A DNA stretch of 64,000 nt from Verrucomicrobiia bacterium (GCA_035516795.1 DATIZX010000055.1:21412-85411); one strand, 5' to 3'; positions 6,264 through 64,000 are shown, counted from the first letter of the stretch. Notes: generated by a model not told the origin, from the letters alone. Program-made: numbers and translations.

Positions 6264-8657
6264 CTAATCGCGGTGCAGTTTGGACCACGGTGCAGCAAAG
6301 GCAGCGACACCGGTTAGGAAAAGGCTGAGAACCGAAACAACGATTCCAAGTCTGAGGACCGGCGGCGAGAAATGGACGACGATTCGACCGCTACCCGGTT
6401 CAGGAATGACCAGACCCTGAAATGCGCCGAAGACCTCCACAATCTTCAGGCGTCCATCGTTCGCCACCCACCCGGGATAAAATGACTGAGAGACGAAGAT
6501 GATGCCCGGCTGACTAACCTTGTATTTGAGGGAATAGGTTTCGGGACGCGCGGTCTTGAACTGAACTACATCCGCCGCAATGGGCCTTTGCCGGAACTGT
6601 GCCTGCTGGCGCAGCGTCTCAGTGCCCACCGGTTTTACGACAGCGATTTCGTTGTTCCAATCAATCGTGCACCGTTCCAGTTCGCCGAGAAGGGTCGTGC
6701 GGGAATCCGATTGATGAATCCGGGAGAAAAACTTCGCGCGGGGGAGAGAGTTGGTGATGATGTCGACCCACGAATTACCTTGGGAGTCGAATTCAGTGGC
6801 CAGCGCAACGTTTTGGATGCCCAGTTTGGCTGCGCGGTTGGTGATGTTTTGGAATCTGGCAACGGAGTCCAGATAAAAACTCGTGTAGCCTTCCGGAACT
6901 TCCAAAAAATCGTGGAAATAAGCGAGGTTTCGCGGGCAGGTCAGTTCTTCTCGGACTTTGTCTCGAATGATTTGCGCGAAACGAAAGGGGTGGTACTGCC
7001 GGTGATAATCTTGAATGAAAGAGAGCAGTTCACTGCTTTGCGGATAAAACACATCGGGATTCTCTGCGCCGCATTGAAAATCCGCATATGAATGGTAAAA
7101 ATCGACGAACAAAACCAACGGGATAGCCCAGAGACAAAACGTTTGGCCCCAGCTTCTTCGCACGTGCGTAGTCCCGTGGACGGCCAACGCGCAGAGTGCG
7201 CCTGCGGCGAGCGCGAACAACGATTCGTGCAGCGCCCAGCTCAATTTATCGGCATCACTGAGGCCAACTCCAAAGTGTTTCCCCCAGGAGAATAATACGA
7301 GACAAAGGCAGGCACACACTGCTGCCGGTAACCACGCCGGCCAGAATCGGGAGACTGCAGCAGGATACTTCAAAAACTCAATGGCTTGCGCGCAGAGGAC
7401 CGCGGCCGCAAAGGTGGCAACACAAGACATCTTCGCCGGTCCACGGAACAGGGAGGCGCCGGGGAGGCTGTAATACAGGGCTTGGAACAAGCCGCCATAT
7501 CGTCCCAACATAAACCAGACGCTGGCGAGCCATACGACGAGAAAAAATCCGACGGCGGCTTTCTTTTCGAGACATCTCCAATTAAAGAGCAGCAGAAAAA
7601 TTGAGATCCAAAACAGTTGACCGGCGTAAGCGCCGAATTCCCAATACTGCCAATAGCCGGTCTGGGCTCGATAGGTCCCGGTTTGCATGACCGTCGGGCT
7701 GCGACGATCGTAGCCCCAGAAGGCACGCGGCGAGCCACCATCCAGGGACTCTCCGAAAAATCTCGGCACCAAGAGGGTTAAGAGCTGATCGCGGGGCAAC
7801 GATGTGTCCGCAACTGTGACAAATGGCTGTCGTGAACGGCCTGTGTGCGACCAGTTTTGTATGGCCGGCAACACCATCACGGCGCCCAAACCAACAACCA
7901 GCAGGAACGTTGCAATCAGTCGCGGAATTTCCACTGTGGCAACCTGCCATATCGTTGCCCGCCAGTTCGCAGCAACTTTCCGCCGCGAGCACCAACTGCG
8001 GTACAACCAATAAGCGGCAACCAGGTACCAGCAATAAACGGTGGTTTGCTGATGACCTGCCAATAGCGACATCAGCGCGGCGCCGACGAAGCCCAGCCAT
8101 GCCCAGCGCCCCCCACGCTCGGTCAATCTGTGCACACACATTAATTGCAGCGGAAGCCACACGTACACCTGAATCATCACGAAGTTAACAACCCTCAAGG
8201 AAGGGAAGCCGGAAAGACTGAAAACGAGCGCACCAGTCAATCCGGCAATGGGGCTGAGCTTGAGCTGTTTCAGAAACAAGTACATCAGGACGCCGCCCAA
8301 AGCGTAATGCAGGATAATGTATCTCTGATAAACCAAGAACGGCAAACGCCCATTGTGCACGAACGGAACCAAGAGCCATTGGAGCGGATAGAACACCGAC
8401 ATCTGTGGATCAGAATAAAAGGGCATCCCGTCGTGTACCCCTGGAAACCACAACGGAAACCGGCCGGCATGGATCGCCCGGGCGAAGTAGTTGATCCCGG
8501 GATAAAACTCCGTCAGTGTGTCCTCCCATATGAAGTGTGTCCCCATGAGGAAATCCCGATAGAAGAATGCCACGAACCCCATCAAAACGGCGATGGCGAT
8601 AACGTCAGGAATGGCTGGCGCAGGTTTTTCTTTCCCCAATAGCAGAGCCTTGCGCAT
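6264..8657 (-). CDS. YfhO-like polytopic membrane protein (putative membrane glycosyltransferase family), paralog 1
   Basis: 797 aa with many predicted TM helices. Conserved N-terminal block (FYRDFL..G..FIWEDTLTEFYPGINYFA...RFPLW.PGVHDGMPFYSDPQ) is shared with the downstream paralog. Confidence 0.65.
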   Translation of the reverse strand: MRKALLLGKEKPAPAIPDVIAIAVLMGFVAFFYRDFLMGTHFIWEDTLTEFYPGINYFARAIHAGRFPLWFPGVHDGMPFYSDPQMSVFYPLQWLLVPFVHNGRLPFLVYQRYIILHYALGGVLMYLFLKQLKLSPIAGLTGALVFSLSGFPSLRVVNFVMIQVYVWLPLQLMCVHRLTERGGRWAWLGFVGAALMSLLAGHQQTTVYCWYLVAAYWLYRSWCSRRKVAANWRATIWQVATVEIPRLIATFLLVVGLGAVMVLPAIQNWSHTGRSRQPFVTVADTSLPRDQLLTLLVPRFFGESLDGGSPRAFWGYDRRSPTVMQTGTYRAQTGYWQYWEFGAYAGQLFWISIFLLLFNWRCLEKKAAVGFFLVVWLASVWFMLGRYGGLFQALYYSLPGASLFRGPAKMSCVATFAAAVLCAQAIEFLKYPAAVSRFWPAWLPAAVCACLCLVLFSWGKHFGVGLSDADKLSWALHESLFALAAGALCALAVHGTTHVRRSWGQTFCLWAIPLVLFVDFYHSYADFQCGAENPDVFYPQSSELLSFIQDYHRQYHPFRFAQIIRDKVREELTCPRNLAYFHDFLEVPEGYTSFYLDSVARFQNITNRAAKLGIQNVALATEFDSQGNSWVDIITNSLPRAKFFSRIHQSDSRTTLLGELERCTIDWNNEIAVVKPVGTETLRQQAQFRQRPIAADVVQFKTARPETYSLKYKVSQPGIIFVSQSFYPGWVANDGRLKIVEVFGAFQGLVIPEPGSGRIVVHFSPPVLRLGIVVSVLSLFLTGVAAFAAPWSKLHRD

Positions 8658-8669
8658 GCTTTAAAGCGG

Positions 8670-11129
8670 TTAGCCGCCCGAGAGGTCAGCGCTCGATCGA
8701 TTCGGGGTGCTGGTTTCGGTTCGCCCTATCTGCATGCCCATCAATGCGCGCGCCGGTTGGAACGCGAGTAAGATCACGACTATCATGCTGAAGAGCGTAA
8801 TTGCGATTCCCCATTTGAGCACCTGCGGCGAGAAACGCAAATGGATTTGGCCGGTTCCCGCTTGGGGAATGACAATGCCTTGGAATGCGCCAAAAGTCTC
8901 GATCAGTTGGTGGTGAGGACTTACCCCCCAACCCGGGTAAAATGTTTGCGAAATGAAGATGACCCCGGGCCGACTCACATTGTAGGTAATCAGATTGCTC
9001 TCGGGCGTGAGGCTCTCAAATTGGATCGAATCGTTGGTGCTCGCTTGTTGGCCATGCTCGTCCTCGTTCCCAACATCGAAACCGGGCATCTCGCAAACGG
9101 CTACTTCGTTTCGCCAGTCAAATTCGTCTTGAGCCAGCGCGTGTCGCAATTCATCTGGTGAATCGAAGTAACGGACTCGCGAAAAGAACCTGGCACGCGG
9201 GAATGAATTGGTCCGCGTGCCCAGCCAGTCCCTGCCCTGGGCATCTCGTTCCATGGTCACGCGGATATTTTGGATGGCAATCTTGGCTTCCTCATTGGTA
9301 ATCCCTTGAAACTGGGCGACCGAATCCACGTAAAAACCGGTATAGCCTTCGGGAACTTCCAAGAAGTCATGGAAATACGGAAGATTTCGAAACGTTGCGA
9401 TTTCCTCCCCAATTTTGCCGCGGATGATTTGTCCGAAGCGAAAGGGGCCGCGTTTTTCGCGATACTCCTTCAAGAGTACCAGCAGGCGGTTGCTCTTTGG
9501 ATAATACTCGTCCGGACTCACGCGGCCAGAATGGAAACTCCCATACGCGTGCTGGAAATCGACGAACGAAATCACGATCGCGGCACCCAGGCAAGTGACC
9601 TGCATCCGGCTCCGCTCGATCCAGGCTGTGCCGGTCATCGTCAGGGCGCAAATGATAATCACGCCCAACGCATACAGGGTTTCGTGCCGCGCCCAAAGGA
9701 GCCTCTTGGTGTCATGCAATCCTACAGCCAGATGTTCCCCGCCGACGAACAACGCCAAGACCAGGCACCCATACGCTGCTGCCGGCAGAAACAGAGGCCA
9801 GGTTCGTAACCGCGTCCCGCGTCGTTGTAAGAGCAAATTGATCGCGTAAGCAGTCAACATCCCCGCAGCCAGTGCAGCCACAGAAGTCATTCTCGCCGCC
9901 CCGCGAAACAGGGCTGCGCCGGGCACGAGATAATAGGCGAGATTGAACAAACCGCCGTATCTTCCAAGCGCGAACCACATGGCGCCAAACCAGGCAACCG
10001 TGAAAAACCCGACGGTCCCTTTGTCCGTGACTCGCTTCCAATTAAATAGGATGAGGAGCAATGCCAACCAGAAGATTTGTCCGACATAGGCCCCGAACTC
10101 CCAGTACTGCCAGTAACCCGGCCCGGCATTTACCGGGTGGAGACGCCGGACATTGGGGCTCTGGGGATCGAATCCCCAAAAGGTCACGGGCGGTGTTACG
10201 TCAGCCGTAGTTGTAGTGCCGAAGAAGTTGGGCACAAAGAGAGTGAGCAATTCATGGTACGGCAATGACGGGTCAGCGATTTCCTGGAAGGGCAGCTTCG
10301 GACGCCCGGAAAGCCACCAGTTTTGTATCGTGGGGAGTACCATGATCGCCGCGATACCGAAAACCAATGCGTACGCGGCGAGCTGTCGTGGAAGCTCGAC
10401 ATGGGCCAACCGGCACAGAGCCACTTTCCATGACCGATCGTCCTTGTGGTGATGCCGCAGGGAGAGATACAGCCAATACGCGATGACCAGATACCACCCA
10501 TAAAGCGTCGTTTGCGGAAATCCTGCAACGAGCGACATCAGCATGGCACTTAACAACCCCAGCCACGCCCACCGGCTGCCGGAACTTGTGAGACGATGGA
10601 CAAGAAGAAGTTGCAGCGGGAGCCAGGCGTACACCTGAATTTTCACGAAACTCACGACCATTAGCGACGCGAAACCTGAAAAGCAGAAGACAAGCGCGCC
10701 GCCCAGGGCCGCCATCGGATCGAGCTTGAGCTGCTTGAGAAACGCATACATACACAGGCCCGCAAATAGGTAGTGCAAAACGATGTATCTCTGGTAGACC
10801 AGGAACGGCAACCGTCCATTCTGCACGAAGGGAATCAACAGCCATTGCGGCGGATAGTAGACGGCCATTTCCGGGTCCGAATAGAATGGCATCCCATCAT
10901 GAACCCCCGGAATCCAGAGGGGAAACCGGCTCGCCTTGATCGATTTGGCGAAGTAGTTTACGCCCGGGTAAAACTCCGTCATGGTGTCATCCCAAATGAA
11001 ACCGCGGCCCGTGAGAAAATCCCAATAGAAGAACGTCAGGAATAATGCCAGGACCGCTACCGCCAGGACATCAGGAGCGATTCGTCTGAGACGCTGTTGA
11101 TCGAATGTCGGAGTCTCTTCCATCGACAA
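8670..11129 (-). CDS. YfhO-like polytopic membrane protein, paralog 2 (tandem duplicate)
   Basis: 819 aa. Strong colinear similarity to 6264..8657 along the whole length. 12-nt spacer to paralog 1. Confidence 0.65.
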   Translation of the reverse strand: MSMEETPTFDQQRLRRIAPDVLAVAVLALFLTFFYWDFLTGRGFIWDDTMTEFYPGVNYFAKSIKASRFPLWIPGVHDGMPFYSDPEMAVYYPPQWLLIPFVQNGRLPFLVYQRYIVLHYLFAGLCMYAFLKQLKLDPMAALGGALVFCFSGFASLMVVSFVKIQVYAWLPLQLLLVHRLTSSGSRWAWLGLLSAMLMSLVAGFPQTTLYGWYLVIAYWLYLSLRHHHKDDRSWKVALCRLAHVELPRQLAAYALVFGIAAIMVLPTIQNWWLSGRPKLPFQEIADPSLPYHELLTLFVPNFFGTTTTADVTPPVTFWGFDPQSPNVRRLHPVNAGPGYWQYWEFGAYVGQIFWLALLLILFNWKRVTDKGTVGFFTVAWFGAMWFALGRYGGLFNLAYYLVPGAALFRGAARMTSVAALAAGMLTAYAINLLLQRRGTRLRTWPLFLPAAAYGCLVLALFVGGEHLAVGLHDTKRLLWARHETLYALGVIIICALTMTGTAWIERSRMQVTCLGAAIVISFVDFQHAYGSFHSGRVSPDEYYPKSNRLLVLLKEYREKRGPFRFGQIIRGKIGEEIATFRNLPYFHDFLEVPEGYTGFYVDSVAQFQGITNEEAKIAIQNIRVTMERDAQGRDWLGTRTNSFPRARFFSRVRYFDSPDELRHALAQDEFDWRNEVAVCEMPGFDVGNEDEHGQQASTNDSIQFESLTPESNLITYNVSRPGVIFISQTFYPGWGVSPHHQLIETFGAFQGIVIPQAGTGQIHLRFSPQVLKWGIAITLFSMIVVILLAFQPARALMGMQIGRTETSTPNRSSADLSGG

Positions 11130-55353: not shown

Positions 55354-56368
55354 CTGGTTTCACACGAGATGCGACACTGGCGGTGGCTGCGTCAGAATCC
55401 AATCGAAGGCGAAACCAATCGACCGCCTCGCGCACGGTGGCTCGGGCCGGACGCTGGGGCTGCCAACCCAATTCTTCAGCCGCTTTCCGGCAGGAATAGC
55501 GTGCGCGGCGCCGCGCATGGAGCGCTGTTTCCCAACACAAACGATCGTTCCCGGCGGTTTCGCCAATGGCGCCCGCCACGGCGATGATGCCCCACGGCAG
55601 GCAAATCCGTGGCGCATCTTGTGCCGTGCACCCGGCCAGCAACTGCAACAACTCGAACAGCGTCAAATGATGATGCCCCAGCAGGTAACGTTCGCCGCGA
55701 CGACCTCGTTCCGCCACGACCAGAATGCCTTCGGCCAGTTCGCTGACATTGATCACATTCAGACTCGTGTGCGTTGCGAACGGGAAGCGTCCCCGCAAAA
55801 AATCCAAAACCATTCGACCCGTGGGAGTCGGTTCCTCATCCTCGGCGCCAAGCGGCGCCACGGGGTTGGCGATGACGACGTCCAGTCCCCGCCGAGACCA
55901 ATCCAGCGCCACGCGTTCCCCGAGCCATTTGGAACGACGATAATGTTGCCCGGCCGCGACGCGCTCGGGGAAATCCCGCTCGGTGACCAGGCCGTTGCGC
56001 GACTCCAGCACGCTGCACGAACTGACGTGTACGAACCGTTCGACCCGTTGGTCCCAGGCCGCCCGCAACATATTCTCCGTGCCCCGATGGTTGGCGGCTT
56101 CCATCGAAAGCCGGTGGCGCCGGCCAAAGCGGTACAAGCCGCCCAGATGAATCACCGTCTGCACGCCGCGAGCCGCCTGCTGACAGCAGACCGGTTCCAA
56201 CAAATCGCCCACCAGAATTTCCACGCGGTCGCCAAACAATCTCCGCGCCTTGAATTCGTTGCGGCAGAGAAGCCGGACCGTGGCGCCCCGACTGAGAAGC
56301 TTGCGGACGACGAACCGCCCAATAAACCCGGTGCCACCCGTGATGAGAGTTTGCGTCGACCCATGCAT
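55337..56368 (-). CDS. NAD-dependent epimerase/dehydratase (SDR; HpnA-like)
   Basis: Rossmann motif TGGTGFIGRFVVRKLL. Start taken at M31 of the listed ORF. Confidence 0.75.
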   Translation of the reverse strand: MHGSTQTLITGGTGFIGRFVVRKLLSRGATVRLLCRNEFKARRLFGDRVEILVGDLLEPVCCQQAARGVQTVIHLGGLYRFGRRHRLSMEAANHRGTENMLRAAWDQRVERFVHVSSCSVLESRNGLVTERDFPERVAAGQHYRRSKWLGERVALDWSRRGLDVVIANPVAPLGAEDEEPTPTGRMVLDFLRGRFPFATHTSLNVINVSELAEGILVVAERGRRGERYLLGHHHLTLFELLQLLAGCTAQDAPRICLPWGIIAVAGAIGETAGNDRLCWETALHARRRARYSCRKAAEELGWQPQRPARATVREAVDWFRLRLDSDAATASVASRVKPDVAAA

Positions 56369-56390
56369 TGGGGCAGAATCTACGATAATA

Positions 56391-57110
56391 ATGCACGACG
56401 GAAAAGTGATTTTCGTGGCTGACGATTTCGGGATGGACGCGGAGACCAATCGCGCCATTCTCCACGCTCACCATCACGGGGCGCTGCAGGGGGCCAGTTT
56501 GATGATGGGACAACAGGCGACCGACGACGCGGTGCGCCGGGCTCGTGAAAATCCCTCGCTGCAAATCGGTTGGCATCTTCATCTCTGCGATTCGCAACCC
56601 GTGACGTGCCACTCGTGGCCGTGGGGCAATGCGTACGTTCAGGCAGGCTGGAGGATTGGGCTGATGCCCGGCGCGCGTCGCTTGATGCGCCGCGAAGTCG
56701 CCGCGCAATGGGAGTTGTATCAACAAACAGGCTTGCCCTGCGCGTTCGTCAATTCCCATCACCATCTTCATGCCCATCCCATGGTCTACGCCGCGCTGCT
56801 GGAAGTCTTGCCGCGACCGTTCAACGGCTGGCTGCGTCTGGGCAGGCCCTGTTTCTTTGGGCCAACTGAGAACCAGCACCTTTATAGTTGGGCGGACGGA
56901 ATTTTCATGCGGACCCGCCGCCGCCATTGTCCCTTTCGTTGCAGTGACACAATCTGGGGACTCGGGCGGACTTATCGAATGCAGGCACAGGAAGTCATTG
57001 AGGCTGTGCAACGCTTGCCCGAGGGTTTGCATGAGTTTTATTTTCATCCGCGCTCGAAGGACGATGCCGATACACAATGTTTGCTGGAGTTAAGAAAATG
57101 CGGATTCTAA
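56391..57110 (+). CDS. YdjC/ChbG-family carbohydrate deacetylase (HpnK-like)
   Basis: Characteristic N-terminus (VIFVADDFGMDAETNRAIL...G.L.GASLM) of YdjC family. Start taken at M48 of the listed ORF. Confidence 0.65.
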   Translation: MHDGKVIFVADDFGMDAETNRAILHAHHHGALQGASLMMGQQATDDAVRRARENPSLQIGWHLHLCDSQPVTCHSWPWGNAYVQAGWRIGLMPGARRLMRREVAAQWELYQQTGLPCAFVNSHHHLHAHPMVYAALLEVLPRPFNGWLRLGRPCFFGPTENQHLYSWADGIFMRTRRRHCPFRCSDTIWGLGRTYRMQAQEVIEAVQRLPEGLHEFYFHPRSKDDADTQCLLELRKCGF

Positions 57111-57892
57111 TCGCCCTGTCATTGGCCGCGGTCCTGACCGGATGCGCGACTGTTTCGCCGACTGCCGGACCCGGGCGTCCGTTCGATTTCCGACGCGACA
57201 CATTCGCGTTCCACAATGAACTCGTATTCAAATCCTCGGATCCGTCCTCGGTTTCTGGCGTCGCCACGACGCTGCAGAAATTGGAGCATCCCTACACGCG
57301 GCGTTGTTTCATCATGGCGGCCGGCGTCGTGCAATTCTGGAAACATGCGCGCTTCGATCCGTCGGCGCCGCCCGTGGCGGAGAGCGAACTGGCTCGTCGC
57401 ATCCGCGAGGTCCGCGATGACGCGGCTTGGTGGCCCGGTGAACCGCCCACCAAACGCGTCGTGTTTCCCGGATTTGCCGGCTTGCGCGACCTCAGCCAGC
57501 GCGAGGGCCGGTTGCTGCGGGCCAACATGGGCGCGGGCTGGACCACGTATTTTCATCTGCGCAAATTCCCCATGCCGTTCGTGCCTTCGCGCACCCATCA
57601 GGCGCGCTTGTGCCAGGAAGTGCGCGCCTGGCTTCGCTCAGGCCATCCCATGGTTCTCTGGCTCTATAATTTTCCCGACGTCAACATCAACCACGCCGTG
57701 ACCGTCTTCGAGGAAATCGCGCCGCCCAATCCCGATCAGATCGCCTTTCACGTCTACGACCCGAACTACACTGATGCACCGCGCACGCTCATATTTGACC
57801 GGGCCACCAGTGCGTTTTATTACGAGAAGACTTTCTATTTCCCCGGCGGGCTCGTCCACGCTCGGCAGATGTTCACCAGCTTGCTGAGATGA
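57098..57892 (+). CDS. lipoprotein, hypothetical
   Basis: Signal peptide with lipobox LTGC. No recognisable domain. Confidence 0.45.
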   Translation: MRILIALSLAAVLTGCATVSPTAGPGRPFDFRRDTFAFHNELVFKSSDPSSVSGVATTLQKLEHPYTRRCFIMAAGVVQFWKHARFDPSAPPVAESELARRIREVRDDAAWWPGEPPTKRVVFPGFAGLRDLSQREGRLLRANMGAGWTTYFHLRKFPMPFVPSRTHQARLCQEVRAWLRSGHPMVLWLYNFPDVNINHAVTVFEEIAPPNPDQIAFHVYDPNYTDAPRTLIFDRATSAFYYEKTFYFPGGLVHARQMFTSLLR

Positions 57893-58031
57893 TGGCCCGT
57901 GGCCGTTTTTGTCCGTCCTCTAGGATTCTTTCCTGTCGAAAAATCAGGTGTTTGGATAATTGACCGCTCTTGCGTCCTGCGGAAGGTTTTCATGTGTTAG
58001 GTCGCATTGCAATCGGTGAGAGGAGTCGCAC

Positions 58032-58397
58032 TTGAAGATTCGAAACGGATTGCTAACGATCGGGATACTTCTGGCAGTCATGACGCTGGCGTGTCGCGCC
58101 GATCAAGCATCCTGGTACGGGAAGGAGCATCGCGGCCGGTTGATGGCGAACGGCCACCGCTTCGATCCCGACAAGCTCACTGCGGCTTCGTGGGCGTATG
58201 ACCTTGGTACCAAGGTGGTCGTCACCCACGACGGCCGCAGCGTGCTGGTGGAAATCACCGACCGCGGCCCGGCCAAGCGGCTGGTCGAGCAGGGACGCAT
58301 CATCGATCTGAGTCGCGCCGCCTTCGCGAAGCTGGCGCCTCTCGAACTTGGCCTCATCGACGTCACGGTCAAGAAGCAAAAAGGCATTGAGCAATGA
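58032..58397 (+). CDS. RlpA-like double-psi beta-barrel (DPBB) lipoprotein
   Basis: 121 aa. Signal peptide and RlpA-family core (ASWYG...GHRFDPDKLTAA....LGTKV.VT..GRSV.V.I.DRGP). Confidence 0.7.
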   Translation: MKIRNGLLTIGILLAVMTLACRADQASWYGKEHRGRLMANGHRFDPDKLTAASWAYDLGTKVVVTHDGRSVLVEITDRGPAKRLVEQGRIIDLSRAAFAKLAPLELGLIDVTVKKQKGIEQ

Positions 58398-58416
58398 GCT
58401 TTGAGCAATGCGCTCA

Positions 58417-58557
58417 GAGGCTGTTGAAAAAGTGGTTGAACCTGCGGATCCGGGTTGTAGGCCGACTCTGTGAGTCGGCGATCCCTTCGAGAATGCCGCC
58501 GCTTCGCAGAAGCGGCCTACAGTTAGACGGCTGGAATGTGAGTTTTTCAACAGCCTC
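58417..58557. repeat. MITE-like structured repeat element, copy 1 (15-bp terminal inverted repeats GAGGCTGTTGAAAAA / TTTTTCAACAGCCTC)
   Basis: Near-identical (1 mismatch) to 61798..61933. Nested internal hairpins CCGACTC-tgtg-GAGTCGG and GCCGCTTC-gcag-GAAGCGGC, plus TGTAGGCC/GGCCTACA. Confidence 0.6.
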
Positions 58558-58700
58558 CTCAGATGTGACCGTGACATTGCTGGAAGCTTCGTGGCGTTTG
58601 GTGGTGAGCGGCATTCGGAGCTGTGCTTTATCCGTACAATCCGCGCTCTAAGACGGTTCGGTGTCGCAGTGATTCTCGTTCAGTGTTCGGCGTTCTACGT

Positions 58701-59522
58701 TCAATGTTCGACGTTCGTGCGTCTGATTGTCGCGCCCAGCTCGGCATGCGCGGCCATGAACCGTTTCACGCGGCGCGCGTCGACCGGCTTGTTCCAGCGT
58801 CCGTCCACCTTGAAGTAGGATCCCACGATGAATCCGTCCGCGGCATCGTAGAACGTGGGCAGATTCTCCGCCGTGATGCCGGAACCGAGATACACCGGCA
58901 ATCGACAATGACGTTTGGCGTCGGTGACGTCGATCAGTTGCGGCGCATCGCCGGTGACCGATCCCGTCACAATCACCGCATCGCCCCGCATAAACTCCAC
59001 CGCTTCCGCCGTCGCCGCAATGTCCACGTCGGCGGTAATCGCATGGGAACTGTGTTTCTTCTTCACGTCCGCCCAGACCTGCACGCGGTCGGCGCCAATT
59101 TGTTTCCGATACCGCAATAACTTTGCCGCCGACGACTGGATCAATCCTTCGTCGGCGACGTGGGCAAACGCGAATCCCTCGGCGCGGATGAAATCGAGCC
59201 CGGCCGTATGCGCGACGGCCATCGCTTCGAGGTTGGCGCCGGCCAACACCTGCACGCCGCAGGGTAATCCGCTGGCCTCTTTCATCGCGCGGGCAATGAG
59301 CGTCATCGCGGCGACGATCTCGGGGCCGACCTCGCCGCGGAGGTACGGCGTGTCGTGCATGTTCTCCAACATCAATCCGTGCACGCCCGCCGACCGGTAG
59401 AGTTTGGCCTCCCGCACCGCGTCGGCTTCGAGTTGCGCCAGATTGAATCGCGCCGCCGGCGTGCCGGGCAGCGCGCCCACGTGAATCATGGCAATGACAG
59501 GTTTCTTCGCTGAAAAGCGCAT
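58701..59522 (-). CDS. BtpA/SgcQ-family TIM-barrel protein
   Basis: 273 aa. BtpA family similarity (VIAMIHVGALPG..., LMLENMHDTPY, GSGITAEN). Confidence 0.65.
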   Translation of the reverse strand: MRFSAKKPVIAMIHVGALPGTPAARFNLAQLEADAVREAKLYRSAGVHGLMLENMHDTPYLRGEVGPEIVAAMTLIARAMKEASGLPCGVQVLAGANLEAMAVAHTAGLDFIRAEGFAFAHVADEGLIQSSAAKLLRYRKQIGADRVQVWADVKKKHSSHAITADVDIAATAEAVEFMRGDAVIVTGSVTGDAPQLIDVTDAKRHCRLPVYLGSGITAENLPTFYDAADGFIVGSYFKVDGRWNKPVDARRVKRFMAAHAELGATIRRTNVEH

Positions 59523-59712
59523 GACGCGGGATTATAGCCGTCCGCCGACGCGAACCAAGCCGTAAACCACGAAGTCGACCTGCTGTGGCGGGGAGGCGAA
59601 GTCTTCACCCAAAGGAACACGAATCGACGCGAAGAGGCAGCGCGCCTTTTGTTCGGAGTCTGCCTTCTATTTTCTTTCAAGATTCCAGTAGCGCTTCCAC
59701 CTTCCACCCAGT

Positions 59713-60756
59713 ATGATGGCGCCAGTGATTCAGAGAAGTATGGTGTGGTTGTTCGCTTTTGCGAGCCTGTTCTTATCGTCGGTGGCCTGGGCCGGACCAG
59801 ATCCGTTGGTGAGGCTGAAGGGTTTCAGCGAGTTTCCATCCGTCAACATCCAAGACCTCCTCAAGGGCGAGATTCTGAGCGAGCCGGGTGCGCTCATGGA
59901 CTTCAAAAACGGGATTTCGGCACAGACCTGTTACGCCGTGTTCGTGCCAGCCCAACAAGCGGCCCGAAAACTCCAACTTTGGAATCCGTCCCTTCACCAG
60001 GACTTGAAGATCTTCAAGTTTCACCCCGTCAACGAGCCCTCCGCACCGATGGATTTTCGGGACATGAGTCTGAAATCAAACCAACGCCCGATCCGCTGGT
60101 TGCTGGATAAGACGCGCGCGACAACACCAACGCAATCGGACCTGAACTTGTCAAAGGAGGAAGCCGAGCAACTGGCCGCTTGCGTGAAGAACCACCCCGA
60201 CCCTCAAGCCGTCAGCGCCTGCTGGGCGCAGTTGCTGCAGCAACGCGCGCTGGCGTTCGAGCAGCAGGGCTTCGCCGGCGTCGCGCCCTACGAAACCGGC
60301 GGCGAGACCATGTCTCCGGTAACGCAGCTTCGAACCATGTTGCGCGAGCAGCCTGCCGTCGCCACTGAATTCGCCCCGATGCTGCGAGAAAGCGGCGTCC
60401 TCGGGCAAGAGGGCAAGCTCGATCCGTTTCATTATTGGGGCATGTACGAAGCCGATCACCGCGCCGTATTGAATTTGGGAGCGGTGTATCTGCTGCCGGT
60501 GGGCAACCGCTACCAACTGATGGACGCGCAGTATTATGTCAGCGGCGTCTATTATTCATTTGTCACGCTGTACGAGGTTTGGCCCATTCAACTCGGCAAC
60601 CAGGCGGCTTCGCTGATTTGGCGAGGTGACTTCTTTGCGGCCCCTGTGCTACAGTTCACCAGTGGATTTGAAAGGCTCGCGTACGGCGCGGTCATGGTCC
60701 AGGAACTCAAGAAGGCGATTCGCGCCTTTCAAGATGACGTGAAAACGAAACCTTAA
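59713..60756 (+). CDS. secreted hypothetical protein
   Basis: Signal peptide. No recognisable domain. Confidence 0.45.
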   Translation: MMAPVIQRSMVWLFAFASLFLSSVAWAGPDPLVRLKGFSEFPSVNIQDLLKGEILSEPGALMDFKNGISAQTCYAVFVPAQQAARKLQLWNPSLHQDLKIFKFHPVNEPSAPMDFRDMSLKSNQRPIRWLLDKTRATTPTQSDLNLSKEEAEQLAACVKNHPDPQAVSACWAQLLQQRALAFEQQGFAGVAPYETGGETMSPVTQLRTMLREQPAVATEFAPMLRESGVLGQEGKLDPFHYWGMYEADHRAVLNLGAVYLLPVGNRYQLMDAQYYVSGVYYSFVTLYEVWPIQLGNQAASLIWRGDFFAAPVLQFTSGFERLAYGAVMVQELKKAIRAFQDDVKTKP

Positions 60757-60775
60757 ACACCGGTCCCCACCCGTC

Positions 60776-61681
60776 ATGACCCGTTGGTGCCCACAAACGC
60801 CAGGGGCGGCTTTCCTTCTCACGCTACTCGCCTTGCCGTTCCTCCTGTCCAACACCAACGCGGCCTCCCCCTTGATGGCCACGGCGCAGGAATTCGACGC
60901 CGACTTTGATTACGTGGCGGGCGCGCCCACGCACCTGCGGGGCGCGAACATCGGTTCCGTCGAAGAATTCAACGCGGCCGCCCGCTATGCCGTTTCCCCG
61001 GCGATTACGAAGCGCTTGCTGCTGCGGCTCGGTGCGGAATGGCAGCGCTCCGATCTGCGGGTGCCGGACAACGTCCCGCTGCCCAAGACGCTCCAACAAG
61101 CCAGCGCGATTGTCGGCCTGGACTGCCAACTCACAGACCAATGGCTCTTGCGCACGGAACTCGACCCCGGCATTTACAGCGATTTCAAGGACGTGAGTTG
61201 GCGCGACGTCAATGCGCCGTTCCTGCTCACCGCGGCGTGCGTGGTGGACGCCGATTTCCAATGGTTCGTCGGGCTGCGCCTCAACCTCTACAGCCAATAT
61301 CCCGTCTGGCCCGTGCTCGGCCTGCGCTGGAAATTCGCTGATGAATGGACCTTGAACCTGATCCTGCCGCACCCGCGGCTGGAGTACGACGTGAACGAAC
61401 GGTTGAAGCTTTACCTCGGCGGACGAGTCCAGGGCGGCACCTACCGGGTCAGCGACGACTTCGGGACCGACCACGGCGACCCCCGGCTCAACCACGAACT
61501 GTTGGATCAATATGAATTGCGAGTCGGCCCCGGCGTTTCGTGGAGACTGCTTCGCAACATGACCATCGACCTCGACGTCGGCTACATGGTTTATCGGGAG
61601 TTCAACTTCTTCGATCACCACGTTGTGCTGCGAAGCAATCCCGCGCCTTACGGCCAAATCGCCTGGCACCTCCGTTTTTGA
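60776..61681 (+). CDS. putative outer-membrane beta-barrel protein
   Basis: Signal peptide. Alternating amphipathic beta-strand pattern and a C-terminal aromatic residue (…WHLRF). Confidence 0.45.
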   Translation: MTRWCPQTPGAAFLLTLLALPFLLSNTNAASPLMATAQEFDADFDYVAGAPTHLRGANIGSVEEFNAAARYAVSPAITKRLLLRLGAEWQRSDLRVPDNVPLPKTLQQASAIVGLDCQLTDQWLLRTELDPGIYSDFKDVSWRDVNAPFLLTAACVVDADFQWFVGLRLNLYSQYPVWPVLGLRWKFADEWTLNLILPHPRLEYDVNERLKLYLGGRVQGGTYRVSDDFGTDHGDPRLNHELLDQYELRVGPGVSWRLLRNMTIDLDVGYMVYREFNFFDHHVVLRSNPAPYGQIAWHLRF

Positions 61682-61797
61682 ATGGACAGGAAGTTCTTGA
61701 CCGCGAATGCGCGCGACTGCGCAAATATTCCCTCACTCGCCGGCGCAAACGACAGCGTATCCGGCCTCTCCCTCAACCAAGGGAGAGGGAACGGTGA

Positions 61798-61933
61798 GAG
61801 GCTGTTGAAAAAGTGGTTGAACCTGCGGATCCGGGTTGTAGGCCGACTCTGTGAGTCGGCGATCCCTTCGAGAATTCCGCCGCTTCGCAGAAGCGGCCTA
61901 CAGTTAGACGGCTGGAATGTGAGTTTTTCAACG
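61798..61933. repeat. MITE-like structured repeat element, copy 2 (3' TIR truncated)
   Basis: Matches copy 1 over about 135 bp with one internal mismatch. Preceded by hairpin CCTCTCCCT-caacca-AGGGAGAGG (61763-61790). Confidence 0.6.
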
Positions 61934-62084
61934 GTTTCGTGAGGGTTGCCCCCCTTGTCGCGATGTAGCTTCATGCGAAGGCGGATGCTATACTTCGCGG
62001 CTCATGCATCTCGCGAAACGAATCATGTCCTGCAGGCGTCGAGTCACCGTGGGATTGGTTGGCCTTCGAGCGGCCAACAAAACC

Positions 62085-63176
62085 ATGCGGCTCGTAACGG
62101 CACGGTTTGCCGGCGCACCTTTGCTGCGCAGGCTAAAGCCTGCGGCTACAGTTTTGTTGGGCGCTCTTCTGCTCCTCGGCGCGGGCCGTTTGCCCGCTGC
62201 GGCGCCGGCCGACGACGAGCAAACGGGATTTCTCGCTGTCACCGATGAGAACGATTCGTTCGCCAATATGTTCGGCGACCATCAAGATCGCCATTACACG
62301 GCGGGACTCAAGATACTTCTGATGGGCGGCGACGATTTCGCCACCAACCTGACCGGGCGCCTCAATCGCCTGGAGAACTGGGGAATCGTGCCCGAAGCCG
62401 CCGACCTTGGCTGGATTATTCTCGGCCAGAACATTTACACGCCGCAAGACATCCTCAACCCGGACCCGATCCACGAAGACCGGCCCTACGCCGGCTGGCT
62501 GTACACGGGCGCCGTTTACCAGCGCCGCGGCGCGCTCGCCACCAATCTGTTCGTGATGGAGAATTTCGAGATTAACATCGGCATGGTGGGCGAGGACTCG
62601 TTGGCCGAGGAAGCGCAGAAAACGATCCATCGCTGGTGGTTTCCCGACGACATCCCGAAAGGGTGGGGGCACCAACTCCGCGACGAACCCGGCCTCGTAT
62701 TGAAGTATGCGCGTTTGTGGCGTTACTCGCCTACGACCGAAACGGCGCGGCATATGGACCTGATTCCCTACGTCGGCGGCGACTTGGGCAACGTGTTCAC
62801 CTTCGCCACCGCGGGCGCGACCGCACGCGTCGGGTTCAATCTGCCCGACGACTTCGGGATGCAGATCATCGACTCGCCCGCATCCGTCAACGGCGGGTTG
62901 ACGCGCCAGGCGCCCTCGTGGTCGGCGTACGCGTTTGGCGGAATGGCCGGCCGTTTGGTGGCGCACGACATTACGCTCGACGGCAATTCCTTCCGTGGCG
63001 GCCCGAGCGTCGAGAAGCGGAACCTGGTGGGCGACCTGAGTTGGGGCGGCGCGATCCGCTTGTTCCGTCACGTCGAAGTCGCTTACACGCACACCGAGCG
63101 GACGATCGAATTTCGCGGTCAACACGGCGACGACAAGTTCGGCTCGATCACCGTCAAAGGCATGTTTTGCTTTTAA
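62085..63176 (+). CDS. LpxR-like lipid A deacylase family / outer-membrane protein (tentative)
   Basis: Signal-peptide-like N-terminus. The VTDENDSF...DRHYTAGLKI block is reminiscent of LpxR/DUF2219 family. C-terminal F. Start taken at M28 of the listed ORF. Confidence 0.4.
   Translation: MRLVTARFAGAPLLRRLKPAATVLLGALLLLGAGRLPAAAPADDEQTGFLAVTDENDSFANMFGDHQDRHYTAGLKILLMGGDDFATNLTGRLNRLENWGIVPEAADLGWIILGQNIYTPQDILNPDPIHEDRPYAGWLYTGAVYQRRGALATNLFVMENFEINIGMVGEDSLAEEAQKTIHRWWFPDDIPKGWGHQLRDEPGLVLKYARLWRYSPTTETARHMDLIPYVGGDLGNVFTFATAGATARVGFNLPDDFGMQIIDSPASVNGGLTRQAPSWSAYAFGGMAGRLVAHDITLDGNSFRGGPSVEKRNLVGDLSWGGAIRLFRHVEVAYTHTERTIEFRGQHGDDKFGSITVKGMFCF
62127..62153. repeat. short repeat family (CGCAGGCTAAAGCCTGCGGCTACAGTT), copy 1; further copies at 63785..63811 (reverse) and 63939..63954 (partial)
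   Basis: Direct sequence comparison. Contains the palindrome CAGGCTAAAGCCTG. Overlaps N-terminal coding regions. Confidence 0.4.
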
Positions 63177-63412
63177 TCCACTGATTACACGGATTGCACG
63201 GATTCGTTTGTAGGGCGCGAATGCCCGAAGGGTTTCGCGCCTAAGCTCCGTCGTGATGCTGTTTCCAAAGACAGCGGCGCGATACCTACACCACAGGCAT
63301 CGCGCCCTACAATCATTTGCCTGCACGGCTATATCCAGATGCGCATCTTCTTCGGATTGCCTCTTGTTTTCGGTGATGCTACTTTGGACAATCATTCAAA
63401 ACAGGAGGCAAC

Positions 63413-63727
63413 ATGGGTCTTTATCTCGTCGAACACAGGCACACTGCCGAGACGTGTCCGCGTCGGAGCAAGGAGACAGTGAACCAACTGTTTACCCATC
63501 TCACGCCGTACAACGCCGCCAAGCTTGGCGTGCAAATCCTCGGCGACTGGGTGAACGACGACGAGCATCATCTCGTGTTGATTTTGGAAGCGTCCGATCA
63601 AGACACGGTGGCACGCTTCGTCAATCCGCTGGCGGCGATTGGCTCGGTGGCGATTCACCAGGGGACGGTCTGCTCGGAAGTGTCGGAGCAATGCCTGGCC
63701 GCTGAATCCAAATCCACCACAAAGTAA
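63413..63727 (+). CDS. small hypothetical protein (104 aa)
   Basis: Strong SD (AGGAGG) 6 nt upstream of the ATG. No recognisable domain. Confidence 0.5.
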   Translation: MGLYLVEHRHTAETCPRRSKETVNQLFTHLTPYNAAKLGVQILGDWVNDDEHHLVLILEASDQDTVARFVNPLAAIGSVAIHQGTVCSEVSEQCLAAESKSTTK

Positions 63728-64000
63728 AACGAATTCACAACGGTCTGCTGATTTCCATGTAGCCGCACCGTTGCCGCAGACAACAGCGGCTGACAAAACT
63801 GTAGTCGCAGGCTTTAGCCTGCGCGGGGAAGACGCACCCATAAAGGGTACGGCTACACGGAAATCGGTTTTGTTAGGCGCTCTAAGCCGAAAACTGCACC
63901 AGCAGCTTGAGACGACATGACGACGTTTTCACGGCAACCCTGCGGCTACAGTTCTGTTGGTTGTATTCGGCTTCGCCCCGCGGACCGGAACCGGTGACGG

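Follow-up and report, generated by a model that had tools for sequence, protein, structure and literature searches.

What kind of sequence is the 141-bp repeat that occurs twice in the window, by which we mean the whole 64,000-nucleotide stretch of Verrucomicrobiia DNA analyzed here, and how did its copies come to lie there? A preliminary description had proposed either a mobile miniature element or a structured small RNA or terminator module. We consider it highly probable that both repeats are a 141-bp non-autonomous IS1182-type MITE and that an IS1182-family DDE transposase recognizes their terminal inverted repeats (TIRs) as its ends. The copies, their TIRs and the target-site duplications (TSDs) that flank them were placed as follows.

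58417..58557, + strand: MITE copy 1, 141 bp, intact, with perfect 15-bp TIRs
58417..58431, + strand: left TIR of copy 1, GAGGCTGTTGAAAAA, which fits IS1182-family ends GANNCYGTTGAAAAA
58543..58557, - strand: right TIR of copy 1, TTTTTCAACAGCCTC on the + strand
58413..58416, no strand: left TSD of copy 1, CTCA, read from the sequence
58558..58561, no strand: right TSD of copy 1, CTCA
61798..61938, + strand: MITE copy 2, 141 bp, with the variant right end TTTTTCAACGGTTTC
61794..61797, no strand: left TSD of copy 2, GTGA, found as a single GTGA at the empty site of L275
61939..61942, no strand: right TSD of copy 2, GTGA

The two copies were offset by 3381 bp and were 97% identical, and the similarity between them ended exactly at the TIR tips. 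The preliminary description was right that there are two near-identical copies, that copy 1 carries perfect 15-bp TIRs (GAGGCTGTTGAAAAA and TTTTTCAACAGCCTC) and that the interiors differ at one base, which is G at 58495 and T at 61876. It had also ended copy 2 at 61933 with a truncated 3' TIR, which proved incorrect; the alignment runs to 61938 with GTGA on both sides, and the only other difference between the copies consists of three transitions in the final six bases, which read GGTTTC in copy 2 vs AGCCTC in copy 1. On the opposite strand, the right end of copy 2 is GAAACCGTTGAAAAA, which also conforms to the family consensus GANNCYGTTGAAAAA, so that copy 2 has not been disabled by truncation. 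The 4-bp TSDs on both copies had been missed in that description. When up to two mismatches were allowed, the 15-mer TIR GAGGCTGTTGAAAAA occurred three times in the window, as compared with 0.2 occurrences expected. The 141-bp element was crossed by spurious ORFs only.

The genes around the two copies were the following.

58032-58397, + strand: DPBB_1/RlpA-like gene
58701-59522, - strand: BtpA gene
59713-60756, + strand: gene with no name given
60776-61681, + strand: DUF6268 outer-membrane barrel gene
62004 (longest ORF) or 62085 (gene call in L269) to 63176, + strand: LpxR gene

Copy 1 lies between the convergent RlpA-like and BtpA genes, 19 nt past the DPBB_1/RlpA-like gene, and copy 2 follows the DUF6268 gene and its hairpin (61765-61788), 66-147 nt upstream of the lpxR start; the earlier placement of both copies just past gene 3' ends was borne out. 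Two ORFs run across the MITE copies, at 58394-58651 (+ strand, 85 aa) and 61648-61974 (- strand, 108 aa). Neither had a Pfam match, and the gene annotation of a public same-strain assembly includes both (L269:3619-3876 and L269:6873-7199); we regard them as almost certainly spurious. The spacer from copy 1 to the btpA stop contains short imperfect tandem-like units, gttcagtgttcggcgttctacgttcaatgttcgacgttcgtg (58660-58720), which are missing from the much shorter spacers of L273 and L274.

Some other repeats were also observed in the window. Two adjacent YfhO-family genes of ~800 aa each (6264-8657 and 8670-11129, - strand), which share ~73% DNA identity along parts of their sequences, explain the other long direct repeats (8002-8444 vs 10468-10910). 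Additionally, a second family of GTAG-footed palindromes, GCAGGCTTTAGCCTGC + GGCTACA, was present at 62120-62150, 63758-63766, 63789-63822 and 63936-63950 and, outside the window, at L134:7341-7447, L270:1979-2009, L271:3110-3140 and L272:2106-2136. The palindrome copy at 62120-62150 lies inside the predicted lpxR 5' end, and arms at 62094-62168 and 63782-63856 form an inverted pair around lpxR that is 75% complementary. A 107-nt version of the palindrome (63778-63884) is 89% identical to a stretch on another contig of the same MAG, and in relatives a 31-nt version directly follows the DUF6268 gene, a position occupied in the window by the MITE region.

To compare insertion sites, orthologous loci were fetched via the DUF6268 protein. 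In the relative L275, whose DUF6268 protein is ~85% identical, the site of copy 2 was empty: GGAACGGTGAGGGT ran uninterrupted, with GGAACG-GTGA-GGGT in L275 vs GGAACG-GTGA-[141 bp]-GTGA-GGGT in the window. This empty site fixes both boundaries and the 4-bp duplication of copy 2. Copy 1 was absent from the orthologous spacer between the RlpA and BtpA genes in L273 and L274, where the spacers are too diverged for the exact site to be read. At a third site, in the btpA-upstream spacer, a decayed copy was found in L271, L272 and L275, and no element was present in the window, L273 or L274. In all, three sites within one 4-kb neighborhood vary among relatives. L269, which is the same strain (99.99% identical), showed no insertion polymorphism.

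Exact look-ups identified the window proteins as HUJ09655-HUJ09698 of an NCBI Verrucomicrobiae MAG, encoded on a 105-kb contig; LpxR and BtpA gave no exact match, probably owing to the start codon chosen. The proteins flanking two further copies, HUJ10335, 10337 and 10338 in L147 and HUJ08651-08653 in L134, were exact matches to the same MAG, and both contigs carry the locus-tag prefix VL171; the MAG therefore holds at least four copies on three contigs. These copies are mutually 94-98% identical, and L140 is probably a fifth copy of the same MAG. The L147 copy, which is inserted elsewhere and has a separate TSD, carries two of the three substitutions seen in copy 2; this suggests, short of proof, that a variant master element was still mobile.

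The element was also found in other organisms. A metagenome scan for a GA-type TIR (named for the two bases that precede a 13-bp core, described below) followed by TGTAGGCC returned 21 contigs, and 15 full-length copies from unrelated loci in soil metagenomes were aligned (alignment A2). Nine of the A2 copies had perfect 4-bp TSDs, all different (CTCA, GTGA, ATGA, TCAG, TCAA, TACT, TTTA, AGAA and TAAA), and a tenth TSD, CTGA, was obtained if one mismatch was allowed in the left TIR. The sole match in the genome collection was L018, a Verrucomicrobiia MAG (81% identical, TSD TCAA). Searching plasmids with the element by blastn gave chance-level matches only, and in viral contigs a scan for the 15-mer alone yielded 120 single, chance-like matches, among which neither the element nor an IS1182 transposase was found. 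Five contigs ended inside or at the edge of the element (L121, L122, L123, L272 and L275), and contig ends inside the element are typical of a multi-copy repeat. Since independent short-read assemblies stop in it, the element is a practical cause of contig breaks.

As only 3.4 kb separates the two window copies, which are 97% identical, they might have arisen without any mobility, through the local duplication of a segment of palindromic intergenic DNA. However, the similarity stops at the TIR tips, each copy has a separate 4-bp duplication, the relative has a precise empty site, and additional copies were found in other organisms and on separate contigs of the MAG. The preliminary description had linked a segmental duplication to a lack of further copies and of conservation in relatives; copies are clearly present both elsewhere in the MAG and in relatives. 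We consider this explanation already refuted, and the probability that we leave to it is negligible.

The family to which the TIRs belong was evident from complete insertion sequences (ISs). In the Acidobacteriota locus L071, a complete 1.55-kb IS (L071:2870-4422) has the ends GTGGCTGTTGAAAAAGTC and its near-perfect inverse; at TIR length, the end reads GTGGCTGTTGAAAAA. The 463-aa protein of this IS scored 386.6 bits on the NCBIfam model NF033551 IS1182 (cutoff 270 bits) and contains the Pfam domains DUF772, DDE_Tnp_1_6 and DDE_Tnp_1. A second copy of this type of IS was found in L107. A tblastn search of plasmids with the L071 transposase returned 2037 records, many of them annotated as IS1182 family. 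Ends were read from seven plasmid IS1182 elements, for which the identity of the transposase was taken from NF033551 or from the record annotation.

ISShsp2: end GATGCCGTTGAAAAAGTCG, 15-bp end GATGCCGTTGAAAAA, TSD TCCC
Mesorhizobium loti element: end GAGACTGTTGAAAAACT, 15-bp end GAGACTGTTGAAAAA, TSD GTAC
Paraburkholderia element: end GATTCTGTTGAAAAAGTCG, 15-bp end GATTCTGTTGAAAAA, TSD GGTC
ISCfr1: end GATTCTGTTGAAAAAGTAGC, 15-bp end GATTCTGTTGAAAAA, TSD GGCC
ISEfa7: end CAGACTGTAGACAAA
Ralstonia element: end GAGGCTGTGTGAAAACG
Pseudomonas aeruginosa element (L125): one readable end GATTCTGTTGAAAAAGTAGC, then GGCC; cut by the record start

The family end is therefore GANNCYGTTGAAAAA, with a 4-bp duplication wherever the flanks were readable. 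The window TIR GAGGCTGTTGAAAAA fits this family end exactly, and the element matches the IS1182 family both in TIR architecture and in the length of its TSD, which was 4 bp in the ISs examined. We also considered IS630/Tc1 (with a TA duplication), ISL3, IS1595/IS1016 and IS5 subgroups, which were candidates drawn from remembered end sequences; these were rejected because a full IS with these ends encodes an IS1182 transposase. The IS in L071 and its neighboring MITE have only ~18 bp in common per end, and the MITEs are therefore not simple internal-deletion derivatives. The mobile miniature element put forward in the preliminary description was thus supported by the TIRs and TSDs, the empty site, dispersal within the same genome, occurrence at unrelated loci and the IS1182-type TIR architecture.

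Neither the 64-kb window nor 12.6 kb of adjoining contig sequence yielded an IS1182 transposase by tblastn, and no cognate transposase was detected in any of the metagenome loci. A large protein search reached only close relatives of the Acidobacteriota IS and no Verrucomicrobial partner, and an autonomous IS with exactly GAGGCTGTTGAAAAA ends was not recovered. As the window contains no transposase, the element would be mobilized in trans. In the mechanism that we propose, an IS1182-family DDE transposase encoded elsewhere would bind the GAGGCTGTTGAAAAA ends, the left TIR being its putative binding and cleavage site, and the bound transposase would excise or copy the element. The element would then be inserted at a 4-bp staggered cut, and repair of this cut would give rise to the 4-bp duplication (CTCA for copy 1 and GTGA for copy 2). 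The identity of the acting transposase, the continuing activity of the element and any effect on neighboring genes are inferred.

To place the element among related ones, we scanned one genome per species for GGCTGTTGAAAAA followed, after 95-125 nt, by TTTTTCAACAGCC. This 13-bp core pair was found at no fewer than 120 loci (L001-L120), in elements of 120-150 bp, as compared with a chance expectation of ~0.01 (596 Gb x 2 strands x 31 spacings / 4^26). According to the record titles, the matches listed included Acidobacteriota, Gammaproteobacteria, Burkholderiales, Bacteroidales, Planctomycetota, Nitrospirota, Desulfobacterota, Verrucomicrobiota (Verrucomicrobiia), Lentisphaerae and others. With GGCTGTTGAAAAA-bounded elements in many phyla, IS1182-family MITEs therefore appear to be far more widespread than the few published cases would indicate. 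Among the matches listed, the 13-bp core was fixed and the interiors were clade-specific and often built of palindromes; the two bases before the core were GT in 50 matches, CA in 49, GG in 14 and GA in 5, the window element being of the GA type, and target preference differed among these four end variants. Perfect 4-bp repeats outside the 15-bp TIR were present in 70 of the 123 elements examined among the matches listed, vs 3.8% in random flank pairing, and all five GA-type elements listed had perfect repeats, each different. Insertion of the listed CA-type elements was mainly at YTAR. In one GA subgroup among the listed matches, insertion was at GGCT/AGCC beside GTCCGCTTCT-like flanks.

A preference was also visible in the flanking sequence. 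Relative to the start of the TIR, TCA stood at positions -11 to -9 in 16 of 30 flanks, vs 0.28 per position elsewhere. Flank and TSD together read GTCAAC-GC-NNNN, which resembles the element's own end, TTCAAC-AG-CCTC, and IS1182-type elements appear to select target sites with end-like sequence (the motif GTCAAC-N2-NNNN). End-to-end tandems were observed at L071:2870-4570, where an IS1182 element is followed by a MITE after a 3-4-bp spacer, and at L137:5697-5860, where a MITE is followed by a solo TIR after a 4-bp spacer; these tandems suggest insertion beside existing ends. The Mesorhizobium IS lies at the center of a 26-bp palindrome, and the IS1182-family element IS1272 is reported to target inverted-repeat structures (PMC5678879).

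Between its TIRs, the element contains two inner hairpins, and its hairpin motif is GTAGGCCG.

58456..58479, + strand: inner hairpin h1, TGTAGG + CCGACTC-tgt-GAGTCGG + C, GTAG-footed and REP-like
58498..58521, + strand: inner hairpin h2, GCCGCTTC-gcag-GAAGCGGC + CTACA, h1-like in inverted orientation

Folding of the two strands, a check that had been suggested previously, gave predicted energies of -68.5 and -65.1 kcal/mol, both far more stable than shuffled sequence (z = -6.3 and -7.5). The minimum-energy fold was a single long hairpin, which results from the inverted-repeat design and in which the two inner palindromes pair together. The three-way structure of the preliminary description stood only in part: its three complementary segments are present, but the helices overlap by 2 nt, and the best fold with a three-way junction reached -59.4 kcal/mol, 9 kcal/mol weaker than the minimum of -68.5 kcal/mol. 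Across the 15 members of A2, mean pairwise identity was 92-97% in the TIRs, 95.5% in h1, 87% in h2 and 55-63% in the three spacers; the pattern used in the A2 scan fixed one TIR together with eight bases of a single hairpin foot, so that identity in those parts is biased, and left the remaining hairpin bases free to vary. In L137 and L128, the hairpin is kept with different stem sequences. The two GTAG-footed hairpins are conserved parts of the element, and they are conserved like the TIRs, which would not be expected under a model with TIRs only; the spacers, in contrast, have diverged to a nearly random state.

A structured small RNA or a terminator/attenuator module would explain both this conservation and the position at gene 3' ends by function. 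The very stable predicted fold of either strand and the conserved internal hairpins agree with such a module, as does the location of both window copies downstream of + strand genes in the same orientation. However, an Rfam scan of 56000-64000 at E <= 1 gave no match overlapping either copy, neither copy had a promoter-like or terminator-like consensus, and no U-tract followed the hairpins. Compensatory changes were found in 2 of 43 predicted pairs (covariation term +0.17), where the A2 covariation is uninformative, the family being too young or too constrained. The TSDs and the unrelated loci indicate that mobility explains the distribution of the copies, and an effect at the RNA level would be a by-product, as has been proposed for MITEPye1 (PMC11578231). 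We therefore set aside this half of the preliminary description as very improbable. The Rfam scan also returned a match to PtaRNA1 (RF01811) inside btpA (59446-59494, - strand; 23.3 bits vs a gathering threshold of 47, E = 0.36), which is probably due to chance.

GTAG is the hallmark of RAYT-recognized REPs, and h1 and h2 each have a GTAG(G) foot, a 7-8-bp stem and a 3-4-nt loop and are arranged head to head. The element could accordingly be viewed as a REP/REPIN, that is, a GTAG-footed palindrome doublet spread by RAYT (TnpA_REP, an HUH tyrosine transposase), with its IS1182-like ends being incidental or a second mobility route. The conservation of h1 and h2 (87-96%, vs 55-63% for the spacers), the retention of the hairpin with different stems in L137 and L128, and the further GTAG palindromes in the window (62120-62150 and 63789-63822) are consistent with this origin. 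In contrast, the movement of REPs and REPINs leaves neither TIRs nor a target duplication, both of which are present here, and the boundaries of the empty site fall at the TIR tips. Within the window, h1 and h2 occurred only in TIR-bounded elements, and ~1.1 Mb of fetched loci contained one apparent solo h1 (L140:6373), which is preceded by the TIR-like GGAACCGTTGAAAC. No RAYT-like ORF was detected in a weak search with an approximate E. coli-type query. We regard spread by RAYT as improbable.

An integron attC site was also considered and rejected. Both attC sites and the element have sizes within 57-150 bp, imperfect inverted repeats, a variable center and a wide phylogenetic spread. However, the core order of the element is reversed (GTTGAAA...TTTCAAC vs RYYYAAC...GTTRRRY), its last core position is off the attC consensus, and TSDs are present; there is also no cassette array, and three ordinary genes separate the two copies, which lie at a distance of 3.4 kb.

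The IS1182-type MITE was then compared with known systems. In Paracoccus yeei, the intergenic MITEPye1 (ISfinder; Front Microbiol 2024, PMC11578231) combines 18-bp IS1182-like TIRs and 4-bp direct repeats (DRs) with a long stem-loop. Like the element, it is small, ORF-less and intergenic, with 4-bp direct repeats, a predicted long stem-loop, IS1182-type TIRs (those of ISPye18), a low copy number per genome and presumed mobilization in trans. By description rather than by sequence, the two differ in host, which is an alphaproteobacterium for MITEPye1 and belongs to Verrucomicrobiota here, and no conserved GTAG-footed internal hairpins are reported for MITEPye1, unlike the element studied here. 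The MITEs of ISMac2 (IS1182) in Methanosarcina acetivorans are 160-169 bp long, one type having 4-bp DRs (Kamoun et al. 2013, PMC3852290). They resemble the element in having an IS1182-family partner, multiple copies and, in that type, 4-bp DRs, and are set apart, again by description, by the archaeal host and longer inverted repeats (25-26 bp).

Among autonomous elements, ISShsp2, ISCfr1, the Mesorhizobium loti element and the L071 IS have the same 15-bp end architecture GANNCYGTTGAAAAA and a 4-bp duplication, and the Mesorhizobium end GAGACTGTTGAAAAA differs from the TIR of the element at one base. In contrast to these 1.5-1.6-kb IS1182 ISs with a 450-470-aa DDE transposase, the element is 141 bp long and has no ORF, and nothing is in common beyond ~15-18 bp per end. 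REPINs and REPs are similar to the interior of the element in having head-to-head GTAG-footed palindromes able to form one long hairpin, whereas the element has DDE-type TIRs and 4-bp TSDs, and no free-standing hairpins were found in the window.

A literature string search for the TIR core returned unrelated primer matches only, and with Rfam also negative, the sequence family appears to be undescribed. The preliminary description nevertheless overstated the novelty of the element, as its kind is known: IS1182-derived MITEs with 4-bp repeats have been published, and the element therefore belongs to an already known kind. It is a newly seen family, in soil Verrucomicrobia, of an ordinary kind of mobile DNA.

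The value of this finding lies mostly in annotation. The element accounts for the spurious 85-aa and 108-aa ORF calls and for short-read contig breaks in this population, and it can serve as a clean marker by which recent transposition is traced in an uncultured lineage of Verrucomicrobiae. Additionally, the conserved hairpins and the TIR-like target preference bear on how the poorly studied IS1182 family works. The hairpin module might serve as a further site of recognition, by a RAYT-like protein or a host protein, for instance; it could be a structure required for IS1182-type transposition; or it could be an RNA or DNA element retained by the host. It is conceivable, albeit rather unlikely, that the hairpins are a functional module and that, together with the end-mimicking target choice, they constitute an undescribed layer of IS1182-family biology; if so, this layer would be common to the MITE superfamily across many bacterial phyla.
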